This document shows positions 11,185 to 25,765 of a stretch of DNA of 64,000 nucleotides, in pieces (position 1 is the stretch's first letter; each line of letters starts with the position of its first letter). The stretch lies in NCBI RefSeq assembly GCF_048403405.1, contig NZ_CP183129.1, one strand, 5' to 3'. Source of the stretch: Escherichia coli. Its GTDB lineage: Bacteria; Pseudomonadota; Gammaproteobacteria; Enterobacterales; Enterobacteriaceae. The notes below the pieces were generated by a model. That model searched no databases. It was not told the DNA's origin and was given only the letters and a program-made list of their open reading frames with translations. Position numbers and translations under genes: made by a program.

Positions 11185-14100
11185 TTAGTCAAACGGCGGT
11201 GGGGCCAGCACTTCACGATTACCGTTGTGCCCCTGTTCGCTGACAATCCCCTGCGCTTCCATCTGTTCGATAATACGCGCTGCACGGTTATAACCAATGC
11301 GGAACTGACGCTGTACGCCAGAAATTGATGCTTTGCGTTTTTCAGTGACAAACTGCACCGCCTGATCGAACAACGGATCCAGCTCTTCAGCGCCATCGAA
11401 ACCGCCCGCGCCACCTTCGCTTTCGCTGTCGGAGGTGATGCCATCAACATACTGTGGGCGACCACGCGCTTTCCAGTCCTGCACCACGGCATGAACTTCC
11501 TGATCGCGAACAAAAGCACCATGAACACGTACCGGCAACGTGGAGTTCGGCCCAGAGTAAAGCATATCCCCCATACCCAGTAGTGATTCCGCGCCAGCCT
11601 GATCAAGAATGGTACGTGAGTCAATCTTACTGGATACGGTAAAGGCGATACGGGTCGGAATATTCGCTTTAATCAGACCAGTAATAACATCAACCGATGG
11701 ACGCTGCGTTGCCAGTACGAGGTGGATACCCGCGGCACGGGCTTTTTGCGCCAGACGTGCTATCAGCTCTTCCACTTTTTTACCTACCGTCATCATCAGG
11801 TCGGCAAATTCGTCCACCAACACCACAATGTACGGTTCTTTTTTCAGCACCGGATGCTGGGCATCCATACTGTCACCCGGCTTCCAGTACGGGTCTGGAA
11901 TCGGACGCATCATCCTATCGGCTTCAGCAATTTTTTCGTTATAACCCGCCAGATTACGCACACCCAGCGCAGACATCAGTTTATAACGACGCTCCATCTC
12001 GTTAACACACCAGCGCAGCGCGTTGGCGGCATCTTTCATATCAGTAACGACTTCCGTTAACAGATGCGGGATGCCTTCATAAACCGAAAGCTCCAGCATT
12101 TTCGGGTCGATCATGATGAAACGCACATCTTCTGGCTGTGCTTTATAAAGCATGCTCAGGATCATCGCGTTCACACCGACAGACTTACCGGAACCGGTAG
12201 TCCCCGCAACCAACAAGTGCGGCATTTTCGCCAGATCGGCAACCACCGGCTCACCGGCGATATCTTTACCCAGCACCACGGTTAATGGCGACGGATTATC
12301 GCGGAATTTGGCGTTATCCAAAACTTCGCGCAGATATACGGTTTGTCGTTTTTTATTCGGTAACTCCAGACCTACATAGGGTTTGCCAGGAATAACTTCA
12401 ACGACACGCACCGCCACCGTCGAAAGTGAACGGGCAAGGTCCCGTGACAAGTTAGAAATGCGCGCCGCTTTTACGCCAGGAGCCAGGTTAAGTTCAAAGC
12501 GAGTGATAACTGGCCCCGGAGAGTAATTGACGACATCGGCTTTAATACGGAAATCAGCCAGACGCGCTTCCACCAGACGCGCCATTTGTTCAAGCGCAAA
12601 GGTATCTACCGGCTCCACTTCGCTCGGCGGAGGTGTCAACAAATCCAAAGAAGGCAGCGGCGTCGTCGGTTTATGCAACGGACGGCTGTCGCCATTACGC
12701 ATCAACAGCGGATGAAGCAGGGTATCCTGCGGCTGTGGCGCAACTGGCTGTTGCGGCTGCGGCGCAACCGGCTGTTGCGGCTGCTGATACTGCGGCTGCT
12801 GTGCAACCGGCTGTTGTGGCTGCTGATATTGCTGCTGCGGTGCAACCGGCTGTTGCGGCTGCTGATACTGCGGCTGCGGCGCAACTGGTTGCTGCGGCTG
12901 CTGATAATGTTGCTGCGGTGCAATCGGTTGTTGCGGCTGCTGTACAGGTTCAACAATTGGCGTAAACAACGGTTCGTGTGGACCATCATCCAGCAACGCT
13001 TTCATTGGCGAAAATTCAAAATCATCCAGCGAGAACGGATTCGCCCCAGCCGGTTGTTCGCCGGAATAACGTTGTTGTTGAGTTTGCGCAAACTGACGAG
13101 CCAGTTCAGCCTCTGCCGCAGCATCTGCATCTTCTGCGTTTACGGGCACATCATGTTGATACTGTTCGCCATAGCGTTGCTGCTGTGTCTGGGCGAACTG
13201 ACGTGCCAGTTCATCCTGCTGCATCGCATCGATTTCATCATCGTTGTACTGATCGCCAGAATCGTACTGATTGCGCTGGGCTTCACGGGCTTTTTCTTCC
13301 GCCGCACGCTGTGAGGGCAGCTTAATACCGTAAGACGCCAATTCACGACGAGTTGGCACGCGGATACGTTTCGGTCGTGGCAACTGCGGGCCAATCCCCT
13401 CTTTGACCTGCGGACGCGGTCCACCGCTATTTGCCAGACTGAAGACTGGCGCGGCAACGGTTGCGGCAGCCCCCGTCGCCAGTGTCGCTTTTTTCACGCC
13501 AGATGCCAGCGGAGAAACAGCGGCAGCGGCTTCTACTGGAGGTACTGCTGCAACAGAAGGTGCTTTCAGCGAAGATTTGATCGGTTCTGGTTCTTTAACC
13601 GGTTCTGGAATCGGTTGATACCAGGCCGCAAGTTGTTCACGTTCACGGGCTCGCTTCTCTTCCACTTCTTCAAAGTAGTAAAGCGGCGGACGCGCGGGTT
13701 TTGTCTCTTCTACAACGGGTTCAGGCTCCACAACAGGCTGCTGTTCAACGGGTTGCGGCTGTTGGTACAACGGCTCCTGAGCGGCTGGCTGCTGATAAGT
13801 TTGCTCAGTCTGGTATGTAGACTGTGGAGCAAAAGTGGATTGCTGCTCTTCGGCTTGCCAGGCGTTACCTGCCACCGATTGTTCTGGCGCAGGGGCGTAA
13901 TACGGCTGTTGCGCAGACTGTTCCGGCGCAGGGGCGTAATACGACTGTTGCGCAGACTGTTCCGGCGCAGTTGCGTAATGCGGTTGCTGAACAGGTTGTT
14001 CAGCTGCAGGCGCATAATACGGCTGCTGTGGCTGTACAGGTTGTTGCAGCGGCTCATTATATTGCACTGCAGGCTGCGCATATTGTGGCTGCTGTGGGTA

Positions 14101-15237
14101 ACCTTCCGGTGCAGGAGCAATAACCGGCTCTCCCGTTTGTGGCCCCGGTACAGGCTGCCAGGCTACTGTAGGTTGTGCAGGTGGAACATCAACAGAGGCA
14201 ACAGGCGGCGTCTGAGTCACAGGTTCAACCGGCGCAGCCCAGCTTTGTGTCGCCGTGGTAGCAGCAGCTGCTACAGCAACAGGTTCGGTAATTGGCGCAC
14301 CGTTTAATAATGGATCGTATTCGTCATATTCTGGCTGCGTTGCACGATTGCCCGAAAAGAGGACGTCGTCCGGGTCGGCAGCCACACCGCGTGCAGTGTA
14401 GGTAATCTCTTCTTCATCATCCATCCGCTTACCGGAGAACAACGCAGCATCTGTTTGCCGCCCCATCGGATTAATGAATTTTTCCGCCAACCGTTTACGA
14501 CGCGCTAGCGCGCCGCGAAGAATACGGGCACGGCGTGATTCATGCTGTTTGCCGTGATTTTCATCTTCGTATTCTTCGTCGTCTTCATACTCATCTTCAT
14601 CGACCCAGGTATCATCGCGACGGGTACGATTACTGGCGAAGGTGAGAATATTTAAAATCCAGCCGCCGAGTTTTTCAGCAATGGTCACCCATGACCAACC
14701 GGTGAACAGCGTCAGGCCCGCTGCCCAAACGCAGAGCAGCGCAATAGTTCCCCCGCTACTGTGTAGCAGTGGTTGTAGCGTAGTGCTTAGTAAGCTGCCA
14801 ATGACGCCACCGGAGGCAAAATACCAGATATCGTCAGCGTTGATTGCCGCCAGACCACAGGAGGTAAGGATGAGCGCCAAAACGCCAATGATGCGTAGCG
14901 AAACGGCAAAATAATCAATGTATTCGTCGCTGGACTGATGACGCCAGGCAAACCAACAACCGCCGACAATAATGACGGGAATGGTGTAAGCCATCACGCC
15001 AAAAATAAAGAACAGCGTATCTGCCAGCCACGCACCGGGCATCCCACCTAAATTATGGATAGGTTCATGCCAGGCCGTTTGCGACCAGCTGGGGTCCGAA
15101 GGGTTAAAGCTTAGTAAGGCAGCCATCAACCAGACGGCAAACAGGACAATAAGGATCAGCAACGCCTCCAGAAGGCGGCGGCCGCTACTTAACTTTGTCA
15201 ATGTGACTTCTTTGTCTTCAGTGTATTCCTGGCTCAA
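11185..15237 (-). CDS. ftsK: DNA translocase FtsK
   Basis: 1350 aa; N-terminal membrane domain, long Pro/Gln-rich linker encoded by tandem DNA repeats, C-terminal Walker-A motor domain (GTTGSGKS). Confidence 0.95.
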
Positions 15238-22014: not shown

Positions 22015-22236
<222 letters not shown>

Positions 22237-22489
22237 TTGTTTTACCGCCTGATGGGCGAAGAGAAAGAACGAGTAAAAGGTCGGTTTAGCCGGCCTTTTT
22301 ATTTTGTGATATGTATGAAGTACTTTGGAAGTATAAATCCATAACTTGTCTCGATGTAGATATACTGCACAACTTGTTTACAGTATGAGCAAACAATAAT
22401 TATCATTAAAATTCTTCTTGACCGTTTTACTCCAACTCCCTATAGTAGCGCCCCGTTGCCACCCATGAGGTTTGGCAGCAAAACAATTT

Positions 22490-22577
22490 GGTGAGGTGTC
22501 CGAGTGGCTGAAGGAGCACGCCTGGAAAGTGTGTATACGGCAACGTATCGGGGGTTCGAATCCCCCCCTCACCGCCA
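22490..22577 (+). tRNA. serW: tRNA-Ser (anticodon GGA)
   Basis: 88-nt sequence GGTGAGGTGTCCGAGTGGCTGAAGG...GGTTCGAATCCCCCCCTCACCGCCA with D-loop, long variable arm, T-loop GGTTCGAAT and an anticodon loop containing GGA. Confidence 0.93.
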
Positions 22578-23160
22578 TATTTAAAGAAAAGCTCGTACGA
22601 AAGTGCGAGCTTTTTTTTTCGCATATTGCACTCCAGGGGGGATGAGAAGCCCCGACCGGGGTTCGACAACTGGCGCAGCCAGTTGGACAGACCACGAACA
22701 CAGTGAGTGGGCTGCCCGCAGGGCGAGCGAAGCGAGTCAATCCCCCCCTCACCGCCATATTCAAAGAAGAGCTCGTACGAAAGTGCGAGCTTTTTTTTCG
22801 CATATTGCACTCCAGGGGGGATGAGAAGCCCCGACCGGGGTTCGACAACTGGCGCAGCCAGTTGGACAGACCACGAACACAGTGAGTGGGCTGCCCGCAG
22901 GGCGAGCGAAGCGAGTCTATCCCCCCCTCACCGCCATATTTAAAGAAAAGCTCGTACGAAAGTGCGAGCTTTTTTTTCGCATATTGCACTCCAGGGGGGA
23001 TGAGAAGCCCCGACCGGGGTTCGACAACTGGCGCAGCCAGTTGGACAGACCACGAACGCAGTGAGTGGGCTGCCCGCAGGGCGAGCGAAGCGAGTCTATC
23101 CCCCCCTCACCGCCATATTCAAAGAAGAGCTCGTACGAAAGTACGAGTTTTTTTTCGCAT
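22561..23160 (+). repeat. Tandem array of about 179-bp units, each ending in a copy of the serW 3' end
   Basis: The 17-mer tccccccctcaccgcca recurs at 22561, 22741, 22920 and 23099 (period 179-180); units are near-identical and alternate between two variants (tatttaaagaaaag / tattcaaagaagag); each carries the terminator hairpin. Confidence 0.85.
22587..22619 (+). terminator. Rho-independent terminator after serW
   Basis: Hairpin GCTCGTAC-gaaa-GTGCGAGC followed by nine T; the same hairpin recurs in every downstream repeat unit. Confidence 0.7.
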
Positions 23161-23458
23161 TTTATCTGCCTGTACGGCAGTAAACGGTATAAAAATCGGG
23201 TTTTTCTTTCGGCTGGCTTTCTAAGCTGCCTGTACGGCAGTGAACTCAAATACTACACGTCTAGCCCGTTGTTAATAAAGCAAAACCATCTCATTTTCCT
23301 GCTACCACCCTTTTTTATCCTTACCTTCCCGCAGCACTAATTATCAACAACTTACCATCATCATCAAAAAAAGGGTCTGAACCTCCTCCACCCCATAAAC
23401 AAAAAGTCCGTAACCTCTTTCGAGATTACGGACTTCACCAACCTACCTAACAATTAGA

Positions 23459-25735
23459 TTAATGCGCTGCTTCCGCCTTGTGCTTTTGTGCACTCTGGAA
23501 TCCATAAGTCAGCTCATTTTTCTCTTTATCCAGCGCAACCGTCACCTGACCGCCGTCCACCAGCGAACCAAACAACAGTTCGTTGGCGAGCGGTTTTTTC
23601 AGGTTGTCCTGGATGACACGCGCCATCGGACGTGCGCCCATTGCCCGGTCGTAACCTTTCTCGGCCAGCCAGTTACGCGCTTCCTGGCTCACTTCCAGAG
23701 AAACACCTTTCTGATCCAACTGAACCTGCAACTCGACGATGAATTTATCCACTACCTGATGGATCACGTCGGTTGACAGATGATCGAACCAGATAATGTT
23801 GTCGAGACGGTTACGAAACTCCGGCGTAAAGATCTTCTTGATCTCTTCCATCGCATCGGTGCTGTTGTCCTGGTGGATAAGACCAATCGATTTACGCTCA
23901 GTTTCTCGTACCCCAGCGTTGGTGGTCATCACCAATACCACGTTACGGAAGTCCGCTTTGCGTCCGTTGTTATCGGTCAGCGTACCGTTGTCCATCACCT
24001 GCAACAGAATATTGAACACGTCCGGGTGCGCTTTCTCGATTTCGTCCAGCAGCAGCACCGCATGTGGATGCTTGATGACCGCATCAGTCAGCAAACCGCC
24101 CTGATCAAAACCAACGTATCCCGGAGGCGCACCAATCAGACGGCTGACGGTATGGCGTTCCATATACTCGGACATATCAAAGCGCAGAAGCTCAATGCCC
24201 AAAGCTTTCGAAAGCTGTACCGTCACCTCTGTTTTCCCGACCCCGGTAGGGCCGGCAAACAGGAACGAACCGACCGGTTTATGTTCGTGACCTAAACCTG
24301 CACGCGCCATCTTAATGGCTTCAGTCAGCGCCTCGATGGCTTTATCCTGACCGAAGACCAGCATTTTCAGGCGATCGCCGAGGTTTTTCAGGGTATCGCG
24401 GTCACTCTGAGAAACACTCTTCTCTGGAATGCGCGCAATACGGGCCACCACGGACTCAATATCCGCCACATTAACGGTTTTCTTGCGTTTGCTTACCGGC
24501 ATCAGGCGTGCGCGAGCGCCCGCTTCGTCGATAACGTCAATGGCTTTATCCGGCAGATGACGATCGTTAATGTATTTCACCGCCAGCTCTACCGCTGCAC
24601 GCACCGCTTTTGCGGTATAACGCACGTCGTGGTGCGCTTCATACTTCGGTTTCAGGCCATTGATGATTTGAACAGTTTCTTCGATCGACGGTTCAGTAAT
24701 ATCAATTTTCTGGAAGCGACGCGCCAGAGCACGGTCTTTCTCGAAAATGTTGCTGAACTCCTGATAGGTTGTCGAACCAATTACGCGAATTTTACCGCTG
24801 GAGAGCAACGGTTTGATTAGGTTAGCCGCATCGACCTGACCACCAGACGCTGCACCCGCACCGATAATGGTGTGGATCTCATCAATAAACAGGATGCTGT
24901 TAGTGTCCTGCTCCAGCTGCTTGAGCAACGCTTTAAAACGTTTTTCAAAGTCGCCGCGATATTTTGTGCCCGCTAACAGAGAACCGATATCGAGAGAGTA
25001 AATCGTACAGTCAGCCATCACTTCCGGCACATCGCCCTGAACAATTCGCCAGGCAAGACCTTCTGCAATCGCGGTTTTACCGACACCAGATTCCCCCACC
25101 AGCAGCGGGTTGTTTTTACGGCGACGGCAGAGAACCTGAATAGCACGCTCCAGCTCCTTCTCACGACCAATCAGTGGGTCGATTCCGCCCACGCGCGCAA
25201 GCTGATTCAGGTTCGTCGTGAAATTCTCCATACGTTCCTCCCCACCAGCTTGTTCTTCGCTGTTTGGCTGGCTGCCAGGATCAGAAGACTGTGTCGGCTC
25301 GTCTTTACGCGTGCCATGAGAGATAAAGTTCACCACATCGAGACGGCTGACTTCATGTTTACGCAACAGATATGCCGCCTGCGACTCCTGTTCGCTAAAG
25401 ATAGCGACCAGAACGTTTGCACCGGTAACCTCATTGCGACCGGAGGACTGGACATGGAAGACCGCACGTTGCAGTACACGCTGAAAACTCAGCGTTGGCT
25501 GTGTGTCGCGCTCCTCTTCACTGGCAGGCAGAACGGGTGTGGTTTGTTCAATAAAGGCTTCCAGTTCCTGACGGAGCGCAACCAAATCCACAGAACACGC
25601 TTCCAGCGCCTCCCGGGCAGATGGGTTACTGAGCAGCGCCAGTAACAAGTGCTCGACGGTCATAAACTCATGACGGTGCTCGCGCGCTCTGGCGAAAGCC
25701 ATATTTAAACTGAGTTCCAGTTCTTGATTGAGCAT
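23459..25735 (-). CDS. clpA: ATP-dependent Clp protease ATP-binding subunit ClpA
   Basis: Start moved to [17 protein letters not shown]... (758 aa); two AAA+ modules (GESGVGKT and GPTGVGKT). Confidence 0.95.
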
Positions 25736-25765
25736 AGGCACCTCCCCCAATTTTTATGCCTGCAT

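Follow-up and report, generated by a model that had tools for sequence, protein, structure and literature searches.

The overlapping open reading frames (ORFs) that crowd the DNA downstream of the serine tRNA gene serW are most plausibly by-products of a repeat array. The region lies within the window, i.e., the whole 64,000-nucleotide stretch of Escherichia coli DNA that was analyzed, and we read it, with a probability of about 0.9, as three tandem RtT-type tRNA-linked repeat units 3' of serW, followed by a CRISPR remnant, and as non-coding. The array is an element of an already known kind: a Ser-type member of the RtT tRNA-linked family, with a variable copy number. It is a biologically ordinary case, and the repeat family has been known since the tyrT work of 1978–1991. 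The main value of the analysis lies in annotation hygiene: repeat-generated frames of this kind are already in public protein databases.

Organization of the serW Locus

Positions 22240–23460 are 100% identical, in a genome comparison, to the infA–serW–clpA region of E. coli GN02461. The locus contains the following features:

22018–22236, plus strand: infA (IF-1), a called ORF annotated infA in GN02461; a true neighbor gene used as positive control
22490–22577, plus strand: serW, tRNA-Ser(GGA), found by ARAGORN and by the Rfam tRNA model (53.8 bits); tRNA-Ser/serW in RefSeq
22583–22618, plus strand: terminator copy 1, the serW intrinsic terminator (inverted repeat, minimum-free-energy (MFE) fold)
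22621–22757, plus strand: RtT-type unit 1 (RF00391, 45.1 bits, E = 4.5e-7; covariation)
22763–22798, plus strand: terminator copy 2 (direct-repeat family and inverted repeats)
22800–22936, plus strand: RtT-type unit 2 (RF00391, 44.0 bits; 98% identity to unit 1), ending in 18 nt of the serW 3' end
22942–22977, plus strand: terminator copy 3 (inverted repeat)
22979–23115, plus strand: RtT-type unit 3 (RF00391, 43.9 bits), ending in 18 nt of the serW 3' end
23122–23155, plus strand: terminator copy 4, slightly diverged (terminator scan; comparison with the K-12 junction)
23158–23245, minus strand: orphan type I-F CRISPR remnant, CRISPR4.1-2 (RF01317, CRISPR-DR4; direct repeat)
23459–25750, minus strand: clpA, a true flanking gene (called ORF; annotated clpA)

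Tandem Repeats Finder places the array at 22559–23160, with a period of 179, 3.4 copies, and 97% matches, and a repeat search finds in it three 186-nt copies with a mutual identity of 98–100%. Each 179-bp unit is built from a copy of the serW terminator, a GC-rich structured body of ~120 nt, and the last 18–19 nt of serW. In unit 1, for instance, the structured body is closed by the last 19 nt of the tRNA gene (AATCCCCCCCTCACCGCCA), and the tRNA-derived tails of the three units (22739–22757, 22919–22936, and 23098–23115) are identical to the serW 3' end. Terminator copy 1 consists of a 16-bp stem, a GAAA loop, and a T9 run, and its hairpin recurs in every unit; a 59-nt segment comprising the last 18 nt of serW, the hairpin, and the T-run is present four times. 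Copy 4 is the version that directly follows serW in unit-free strains, e.g., K-12. Each array unit is 57–59% G+C and has about one stop codon per frame.

The three unit bodies match Rfam family RF00391 (RtT) across the full model, with E-values of ~5e-7 to 9e-7; measured against the gathering score of 45 bits, unit 1 (45.1) lies above and units 2 and 3 (44.0 and 43.9) lie just below. The array has the arrangement that characterizes the RtT family, namely tandem units of ~178 bp placed right after a tRNA gene, each with the 3' ~19 nt of this tRNA at its end. It does not belong to the tyrT (tRNA-Tyr) operon, since the upstream tRNA here is Ser(GGA). RefSeq annotates an ‘RtT sRNA’ at the serW locus of identical and sister strains, and also at the paralogous serX locus.

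Reading Frames Across the Array

The array is covered on both strands by ORFs that we take to be spurious; LLR denotes the codon log-odds score described in the next section, and SD a Shine-Dalgarno sequence:

22378–22989, minus strand: 203-aa ORF (LLR −0.20 per codon; first start without SD)
22427–22810, minus strand: 127-aa ORF (LLR 0.00 per codon; without SD)
22603–22824, plus strand: 73-aa ORF (LLR −0.30), including the frame positionally homologous to K-12 tpr
22703–22885, plus strand: 60-aa ORF (MSGLPAGRAKRV...; LLR −0.31), exactly one repeat period long
22882–23064 (60 aa) and 23061–23183 (40 aa), plus strand: called ORFs, repeats of MSGLPAGRAKRV...
22707–22943, plus strand: 78-aa ORF (MGCPQGERSES...; LLR −0.27)
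22886–23224, plus strand: 112-aa repeat of the 78-aa ORF (LLR −0.22)
23065–23340, plus strand: 91-aa ORF, beginning in RtT unit 3 and reading through both CRISPR repeats
22917–23249, minus strand: 110-aa ORF, beginning in a CRISPR repeat and reading into RtT unit 3 (LLR −0.15; without SD)

The first-pass annotation of this DNA had described 60–203-aa ORFs with recurring peptides on both strands across 22378–23340. Every ORF that it cited is present, and the two limits coincide with the outer ends of the 203-aa ORF (22378) and the 91-aa ORF (23340). The peptide MGCPQGERSESIPPSPPY... begins three times, at 22707, 22886, and 23065, yielding products of 78, 112, and 91 aa, while MRKKSSHFRTS... lies inside two minus-strand ORFs, those of 203 and 110 aa. 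The same annotation stated that the frames run through tRNA-derived and terminator sequence, which agrees with what we find: the array frames cross four terminator hairpins and three tRNA fragments, the latter being the serW tails. The 203-aa ORF by itself crosses two RtT units, three terminators, and the serW promoter region, and it passes antisense through all of serW; its C-terminal, serW-antisense half corresponds to an unannotated 90-aa ORF in array-free K-12. Neither the RtT family identity of the repeats nor the CRISPR remnant under the last ORFs was noted in the first-pass annotation.

The period of 179 equals 2 modulo 3 and is not divisible by three. For this reason, an ORF that continues into the next copy reads each copy in a new frame, and the 60-aa ORF ends exactly at the start of the next one. 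The peptides recur because every copy brings the same accidental start and stop. A GC-rich unit with about one stop per frame, tiled at a distance that is not a multiple of three, yields many overlapping ORFs on both strands, and shuffling experiments are in line with this scheme. Between 22300 and 23420, we count 10 ORFs of 57 aa or more, as compared to 3.0 ± 1.5 in dinucleotide shuffles, none of which (0/1000) reaches 10. With three tandem copies of a single shuffled unit, the number rises to 5.8 ± 1.7 ORFs, 14 of 1000 such sequences reach 10, and a 203-aa ORF arises in 17.5% of them. Tiling of a stop-poor unit accounts for much of the ORF excess, and the earlier description of these frames as repeat-generated is borne out.

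Coding Potential of the Array Frames

We scored codon usage using a log-odds model trained on the 32 long genes of the window, with leave-one-out scoring. Real genes average 0.30 ± 0.08 per codon (minimum 0.02), with infA at +0.40, while 122 shadow ORFs inside genes average −0.17 ± 0.20. All array ORFs fall between −0.32 and 0.00 per codon, i.e., they have the usage of shadow ORFs and lack the codon usage typical of the genome's genes.

A Shine-Dalgarno sequence of at least 4 nt, located 3–12 nt before the first start, was found in none of the array ORFs; by comparison, infA has an AGGA Shine-Dalgarno with a dG of −5.8 kcal/mol. The earlier statement that the frames have no ribosome-binding sites holds for all first starts and is slightly overstated for internal ones. 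A scan of all internal starts found that the minus-strand ATG of MRKK... (22803 and 22624) has a GGAG 6 nt upstream with a dG of −5.9 kcal/mol, close to the infA value, and that a minus-strand TTG at 22740, antisense to a tRNA tail, reaches −10.7. These exceptions are not conserved in serX-type units, in which the MRKK ATG reads ATA and its GGAG reads GGTG.

Searches of Pfam and NCBIfam with six window ORFs plus Tpr and YchS returned no match at E ≤ 1. Every database relative of the array ORFs is an E. coli entry labeled ‘hypothetical protein’, and the lengths of these entries vary widely; literature searches on translation of the array frames, on ychS/b1229/ycdV, and on ribosome profiling of tpr found nothing relevant. 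Judged from these sequence tests, the array ORFs are very probably spurious and not protein-coding.

Homologous Units in Other Enterobacteria

Scanning one genome per species for a conserved 30-nt pattern identified 120 loci in more than 30 enterobacterial genera. In this set, the GGGGGG-type unit always follows tRNA-Ser(GGA), and the GGAAGG-type unit always follows tRNA-Tyr; the first unit begins 52–62 nt after the tRNA, and the unit tail is the 3' end of that same tRNA. Across genera, 81 of 93 Ser-type units come after an intrinsic terminator, made up of a conserved hairpin and a run of T; among 84 Tyr-type units, none does.

The first-pass annotation had proposed comparing conservation in strains with different repeat copy number. 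In homologous units, no frame is conserved: the comparison comprised 96 Ser-type and 86 Tyr-type units of other species, and the share of units with any given frame open never exceeded 45%. Cores differ in length by 1-nt steps (119–125 nt in Ser-type, 112–119 nt in Tyr-type units), and tandem spacings range from 170 to 185 bp, with all residues modulo 3 represented. When 55 distinct Ser-type units are compared to unit 1 of the window, 97% of internal indels are not multiples of three (3% are). Along the same lines, column variability in these 55 units has no 3-nt periodicity, the observed value being reached by 2915 of 5000 permutations.

These comparisons bear on the proposal that one frame encodes a real small protein, either the Tpr-like frame starting at ATG 22642, 22821, and 23000 or the minus-strand MRKK frame, which we regard as highly improbable. 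In its favor, K-12 still has tpr (b1229) annotated as a CDS inside the homologous tyrT RtT unit. The Tpr-like frame shares similarity with Tpr over its first 13 residues and stays open for 60 codons here (MRSPDRGST...), but the resemblance ends exactly where the nucleotide-conserved segment ends, and the Tpr frame stops after five codons in 61 of 86 Tyr-type units and after 16 to more than 43 codons in Ser-type units. At ATG 22642, moreover, the G-run abuts the start with no spacer. The MRKK frame has the GGAG described above; however, both its start and this GGAG are lost in serX-type units, the start sits right on a bidirectional terminator hairpin, and a T9 or T8 run shifts the frame between copies of one and the same array, giving MRKKKLALSY... 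or MRKKSSHFRTS..., respectively, right after the MRKK start. The codon LLR of the small-protein frames is negative. Altman et al. 1981 reportedly made an experimental claim for tpr; the serW frames have none.

The same survey helps to weigh a second idea, that the repeated tRNA 3' ends are attL/attR-type scars left by islands or phages that entered serW and are not members of the RtT family. Each unit does end in the 3' 18–19 nt of the tRNA, starting inside the T-loop, which is the typical extent of tRNA att cores. In EHEC, serW and serX have reportedly been treated as loci that bear islands (PMC3064760). Yet neither an integrase nor island DNA lies between the copies, and the units are only 179 bp long. 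Their body is homologous to RtT, the first unit is always 52–62 nt from the tRNA, and the same architecture, with a conserved structure, follows tRNA-Ser(GGA) or tRNA-Tyr in more than 30 enterobacterial genera. A scar origin is very unlikely on these grounds, and the integrase att scar was rejected on account of the missing integrase and island DNA, the RtT-homologous body, and the architecture shared by so many genera.

Conserved Structure of the RtT-Type Units

What is conserved in the RtT-type units is their fold. The 180-nt unit folds at −76.9 kcal/mol (MFE), with a z-score of −5.05. RNAalifold applied to 15 units predicts 30 pairs, 13 of which have double changes, and for the 55 distinct Ser-type units, it again predicts 30 pairs, 10 of them with compensatory double changes and few cells unpaired; these counts come from related sequences and a structure derived from the same alignment, are somewhat inflated, and serve as support and not as a formal test. 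In the outer stem and the inner hairpin, GG/CC and AA/UU switch together between Ser- and Tyr-type units, and one hairpin pair changes from A-U to G-C between serW- and serX-type units. In a combined alignment of Ser- and Tyr-type units (119 units), RNAalifold loses the middle hairpins owing to a length difference between the two types at this point, and each type was subsequently folded separately. The array has the outer stem closing several hairpins, backed by covariation, that is expected of RtT. The covariation and the indel patterns support the view that selection acts on the nucleic-acid structure and would be indifferent to any reading frame.

Whether such a structure would function as RNA can be considered in light of two features. 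(i) Transcription: with a strong terminator before each unit, expression would need read-through, and the accumulation of a stable RNA of ~171 nt, processed from the tRNA primary transcript, is doubtful given that terminator. (ii) Pairing: the Ser-type unit bears both T-arm halves of its cognate tRNA, in the order ...GGGGTTCGA, a structured insert of ~72 nt, and ATCCCCCCC-acceptor-CCA, together with an upstream G-run and C-run, and these four segments can pair as 1-4/2-3 or as 1-2/3-4. The four segments co-vary with the T-stem of the neighboring tRNA, reading GGGG/CCCC for Ser, GAAG/CUUC for Tyr, and GGGAGG/CCCTC in Tenebrionibacter. One may speculate that the Ser-type RtT unit is a selected tRNA-derived RNA module as opposed to inert repeat DNA, a reading that we consider unlikely. 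The RNA of such a module could switch between a closed form and a form exposing a tRNA-like T-arm/CCA end, and the exposed form could compete for tRNA-processing or tRNA-binding factors. If true, such behavior would agree with an early proposal of an effect of rtT RNA on the stringent response.

Copy Number and the Adjacent CRISPR Remnant

The number of units at serW differs between strains: K-12 and most E. coli have none, while other strains have one, two, or three. Of 5426 complete genomes, about 776–916 match the query over 80% of its length or more, for which at least one unit is needed, and about 1030 genomes contain a unit body with an identity of at least 95%; roughly 14–19% of complete genomes have the serW array. 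In K-12, CGCATTTTAT and the CRISPR repeat come immediately after serW and its terminator. Direct repeats of ~64 bp, made of the tRNA tail, the terminator, and CGCAT, delimit the units, and terminator variants alternate along the array in the order A-B-A-B'. An array of this kind would grow or shrink by unequal crossing-over (recombination) or by slippage between the ~64-bp direct repeats.

The CRISPR remnant has two 28-nt repeats (23158–23185 and 23218–23245) around one 32-nt spacer, at a spacing of 60 bp, which score 50.1 and 26.4 bits with RF01317. One could suppose that the 179-bp repeats are themselves part of this locus, as a leader or a degenerate array; they directly adjoin CRISPR4.1-2, and a spurious CDS called by PGAP covers both. 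This supposition has almost nothing to recommend it once the two elements are compared. The type I-F CRISPR4 repeat (CRISPR-DR4) is detected at 23158–23245 only, with no CRISPR repeat in the 179-bp units; the CRISPR repeats recur every 60 bp and are on the other strand. Units of 179–181 bp also occur at serX, where there is no CRISPR, and in most E. coli, the CRISPR remnant is present although the units are missing. The serX locus and the unit-free strains together refute a CRISPR leader or degenerate array as the source of the RtT-type units.

Array Frames in Public Protein Databases

The earlier expectation that automated pipelines would mis-call these frames has materialized: products of 60, 91, and 152 aa have database entries as hypothetical proteins. 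KAA1889385.1 and PZQ67139.1 match the 60-aa product exactly, and HMPREF9534_01739 (EFJ82192.1), from E. coli MS 69-1, is an exact match to the 91-aa one; each is labeled a hypothetical protein. Members of the protein clusters of the array ORFs range from 60 to 255 aa, and their length tracks the copy number of the RtT-type and CRISPR repeats. Where a single unit lies beside a longer CRISPR array, PGAP calls a ‘hypothetical protein’ of 132 or 152 aa (WP_012602745.1 and WP_077698801.1), which begins with VSGLPAGRAKRV in the RtT unit and continues as ...LSCLYGSE... through the CRISPR repeats. The 152-aa WP_077698801.1 is recorded on at least 1000 contigs, and in a spread sample, PGAP placed a spurious CDS in three of 11 serW-type loci. 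Where the DNA is the same as in the window, PGAP reports one RtT sRNA in some strains and nothing in others, an inconsistency explained by the position of the Ser-type units right at the Rfam RtT threshold. Both the miscalls and the inconsistency would disappear with a dedicated Ser-type RtT model.

Comparison with Known Systems

The CRISPR remnant belongs to a known system of its own. A CRISPR locus between clpA and infA has been described (PMC3903273, PMC12736100), and the two type-4 repeats with one spacer found here correspond to CRISPR4.1-2 of the clpA–infA (CRISPR-III, type I-F) locus as it appears in E. coli lacking cas-F. With respect to the ORFs, the remnant is a neighbor and not a cause, supplying only the 3' parts of the 91-aa and 110-aa ORFs.

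The closest relative of the serW array is found at serX, which is itself a copy of serW. K-12 has three units between serX and ycdU, unannotated in the curated record. They are Ser-type, 92.7% identical to the serW units, and have the same terminator, and their period of 181 bp differs from the 179 bp of serW by two 1-nt indels. Most E. coli have the serX array; the serW array is limited to the roughly 14–19% of complete genomes given above.

The founding members of the family are the tyrT–tyrV repeats (RF00391; rttR, b4425). Egan & Landy (1978) reportedly described the tyrT repeat as ‘178 bp repeated 3.14 times’, and Bösl & Kersten (1991), a study cited in PMC3318445, are said to have studied the rtT RNA of the tyrT operon. 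A paper on premature terminators linked rtT-like similarity only to BIMEs, and RtT is no longer mentioned in the current version of the CoCoNuTs preprint. The tyrT–tyrV and serW arrays have the same tandem units of ~178–181 bp right after a class II tRNA gene, and both end their units in ~19 nt of the 3' end of their own tRNA. They also have a common body (GGATGAGAA...CGAC...GGTTCGA...CCCGNAGGGCGAG), with the same outer stem and hairpins. The two arrays also differ. Ser-type units score 44–48 bits with RF00391 as compared to 133–137 bits for the four K-12 tyrT/tyrV units; their T-arm-derived segments are GGGG/CCCC instead of the GAAG/CTTC of tyrT; their middle hairpins are longer; and the preceding intrinsic terminator is a feature of Ser-type units that is absent from Tyr-type ones.

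Similarly, the frames have a counterpart in K-12, where the tyrT units carry the sRNA rttR, a 29-aa CDS, tpr, inside rttR, and a 91-aa CDS, ychS, on the opposite strand. The tpr-like frames of the window are longer than Tpr and diverge from it after 13 residues, and neither the tpr nor the ychS frame is conserved in the family. Like the serW frames, tpr (b1229, the 29-aa ‘protamine-like protein’) and ychS (b1228, 91 aa) are ORFs from RtT units, read in sense and antisense, respectively.

Reading frames arising from RtT and CRISPR repeats

The frames running through the array had been described in the first-pass annotation as devoid of ribosome-binding sites, a description that needs amending for the minus-strand peptide MRKK..., whose internal ATG (window 22803 and 22624, - strand) is preceded by GGAG 6 nt upstream (dG -5.9 kcal/mol). 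The region of this start is the RtT 5' region read in antisense, and neither the MRKK... start nor the GGAG is present in the serX-type units. Frames of related origin are already listed as proteins in RefSeq, at two comparison loci from other genomes:

L002 1963-2421: WP_077698801.1, 'hypothetical protein', 152 aa
L005 1285-1683: WP_012602745.1, 'hypothetical protein', 132 aa

Both start inside an RtT unit and continue in frame across four or five CRISPR repeats, from which their recurring peptide …LSCLYGSE… derives; the 152-aa sequence is carried by at least 1000 contigs. A CRISPR element also lies in the window, between clpA and the RtT array, reduced to two repeats and one spacer that differs from the K-12 spacer:

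23158-23245, - strand: orphan type I-F CRISPR remnant (CRISPR4.1-2; RF01317, 50.1 and 26.4 bits)

Conserved elements of the RtT unit

Copies of an intrinsic terminator, and segments related to the tRNA T-arm, recur along the array:

22583-22618, 22763-22798, 22942-22977, 23122-23155: intrinsic-terminator copies
22636-22668, 22739-22757: T-arm-related segments (repeated at the corresponding places of the second and third units; also in comparison loci L124, 2805-2939, and L015, 82-218)

Among loci L008-L127, a conserved terminator hairpin with a T-run stands 5' of 81 of the 93 Ser-type units across genera, its stem showing compensatory changes; before the Tyr-type units of the same loci, this combination was found in 0 of 84. 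Within the unit, both halves of the cognate tRNA T-arm are present, divided at TTCGA|AT by a structured insert of ~72 nt, with an additional G-run and C-run upstream. The segments follow the T-stem of the respective tRNA (GGGG/CCCC in Ser, GAAG/CTTC in Tyr, and GGGAGG/CCCTC in Tenebrionibacter), and the four of them could form two alternative pairings.

Uneven annotation of identical DNA

DNA identical to window 22621-23115 (hits H71-H77) is annotated inconsistently by PGAP: no feature is given in strains GN02461 and NRZ14408, while one 'RtT sRNA' is given in 4621, MS 69-1, and others. With the cut-off at 45 bits, the three units of the window reach 45.1, 44.0, and 43.9. The PGAP remark 'processed from tyrT transcript' is incorrect at the serW locus.

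Other repeats

Tandem repeats of 21-39 bp, all multiples of 3, occupy window 12728-12950 and 13880-14025, within a 1350-aa ORF (11185-15237, - strand) that, judging from gene order, may be FtsK; they probably encode a repetitive proline/glutamine-rich linker in this large protein. RtT-like units also follow tRNA-Ser(CGA) and tRNA-Tyr in two genomes labelled as non-Enterobacterales (L077, Stenotrophomonas maltophilia; L084, Martelella alba), which could reflect a wrong label, contamination, or a broader distribution.

Comparison with the K-12 serX and tyrT loci

In K-12, three Ser-type units lie 3' of serX (46.3, 46.3, and 36.1 bits; L007 1523-2021) and carry no annotation in the curated record of MG1655; between ycdU (b1029) and serX (b1032), the locus tags b1030 and b1031 are absent. 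At tyrT, two annotated CDSs, ychS (b1228) and tpr (b1229), are contained entirely in the RtT repeats (L006 1210-1485 and 1588-1677). Of the 86 Tyr-type units in other species, 61 break the tpr frame after 5 codons, an interruption which suggests that this frame is likewise repeat-generated.
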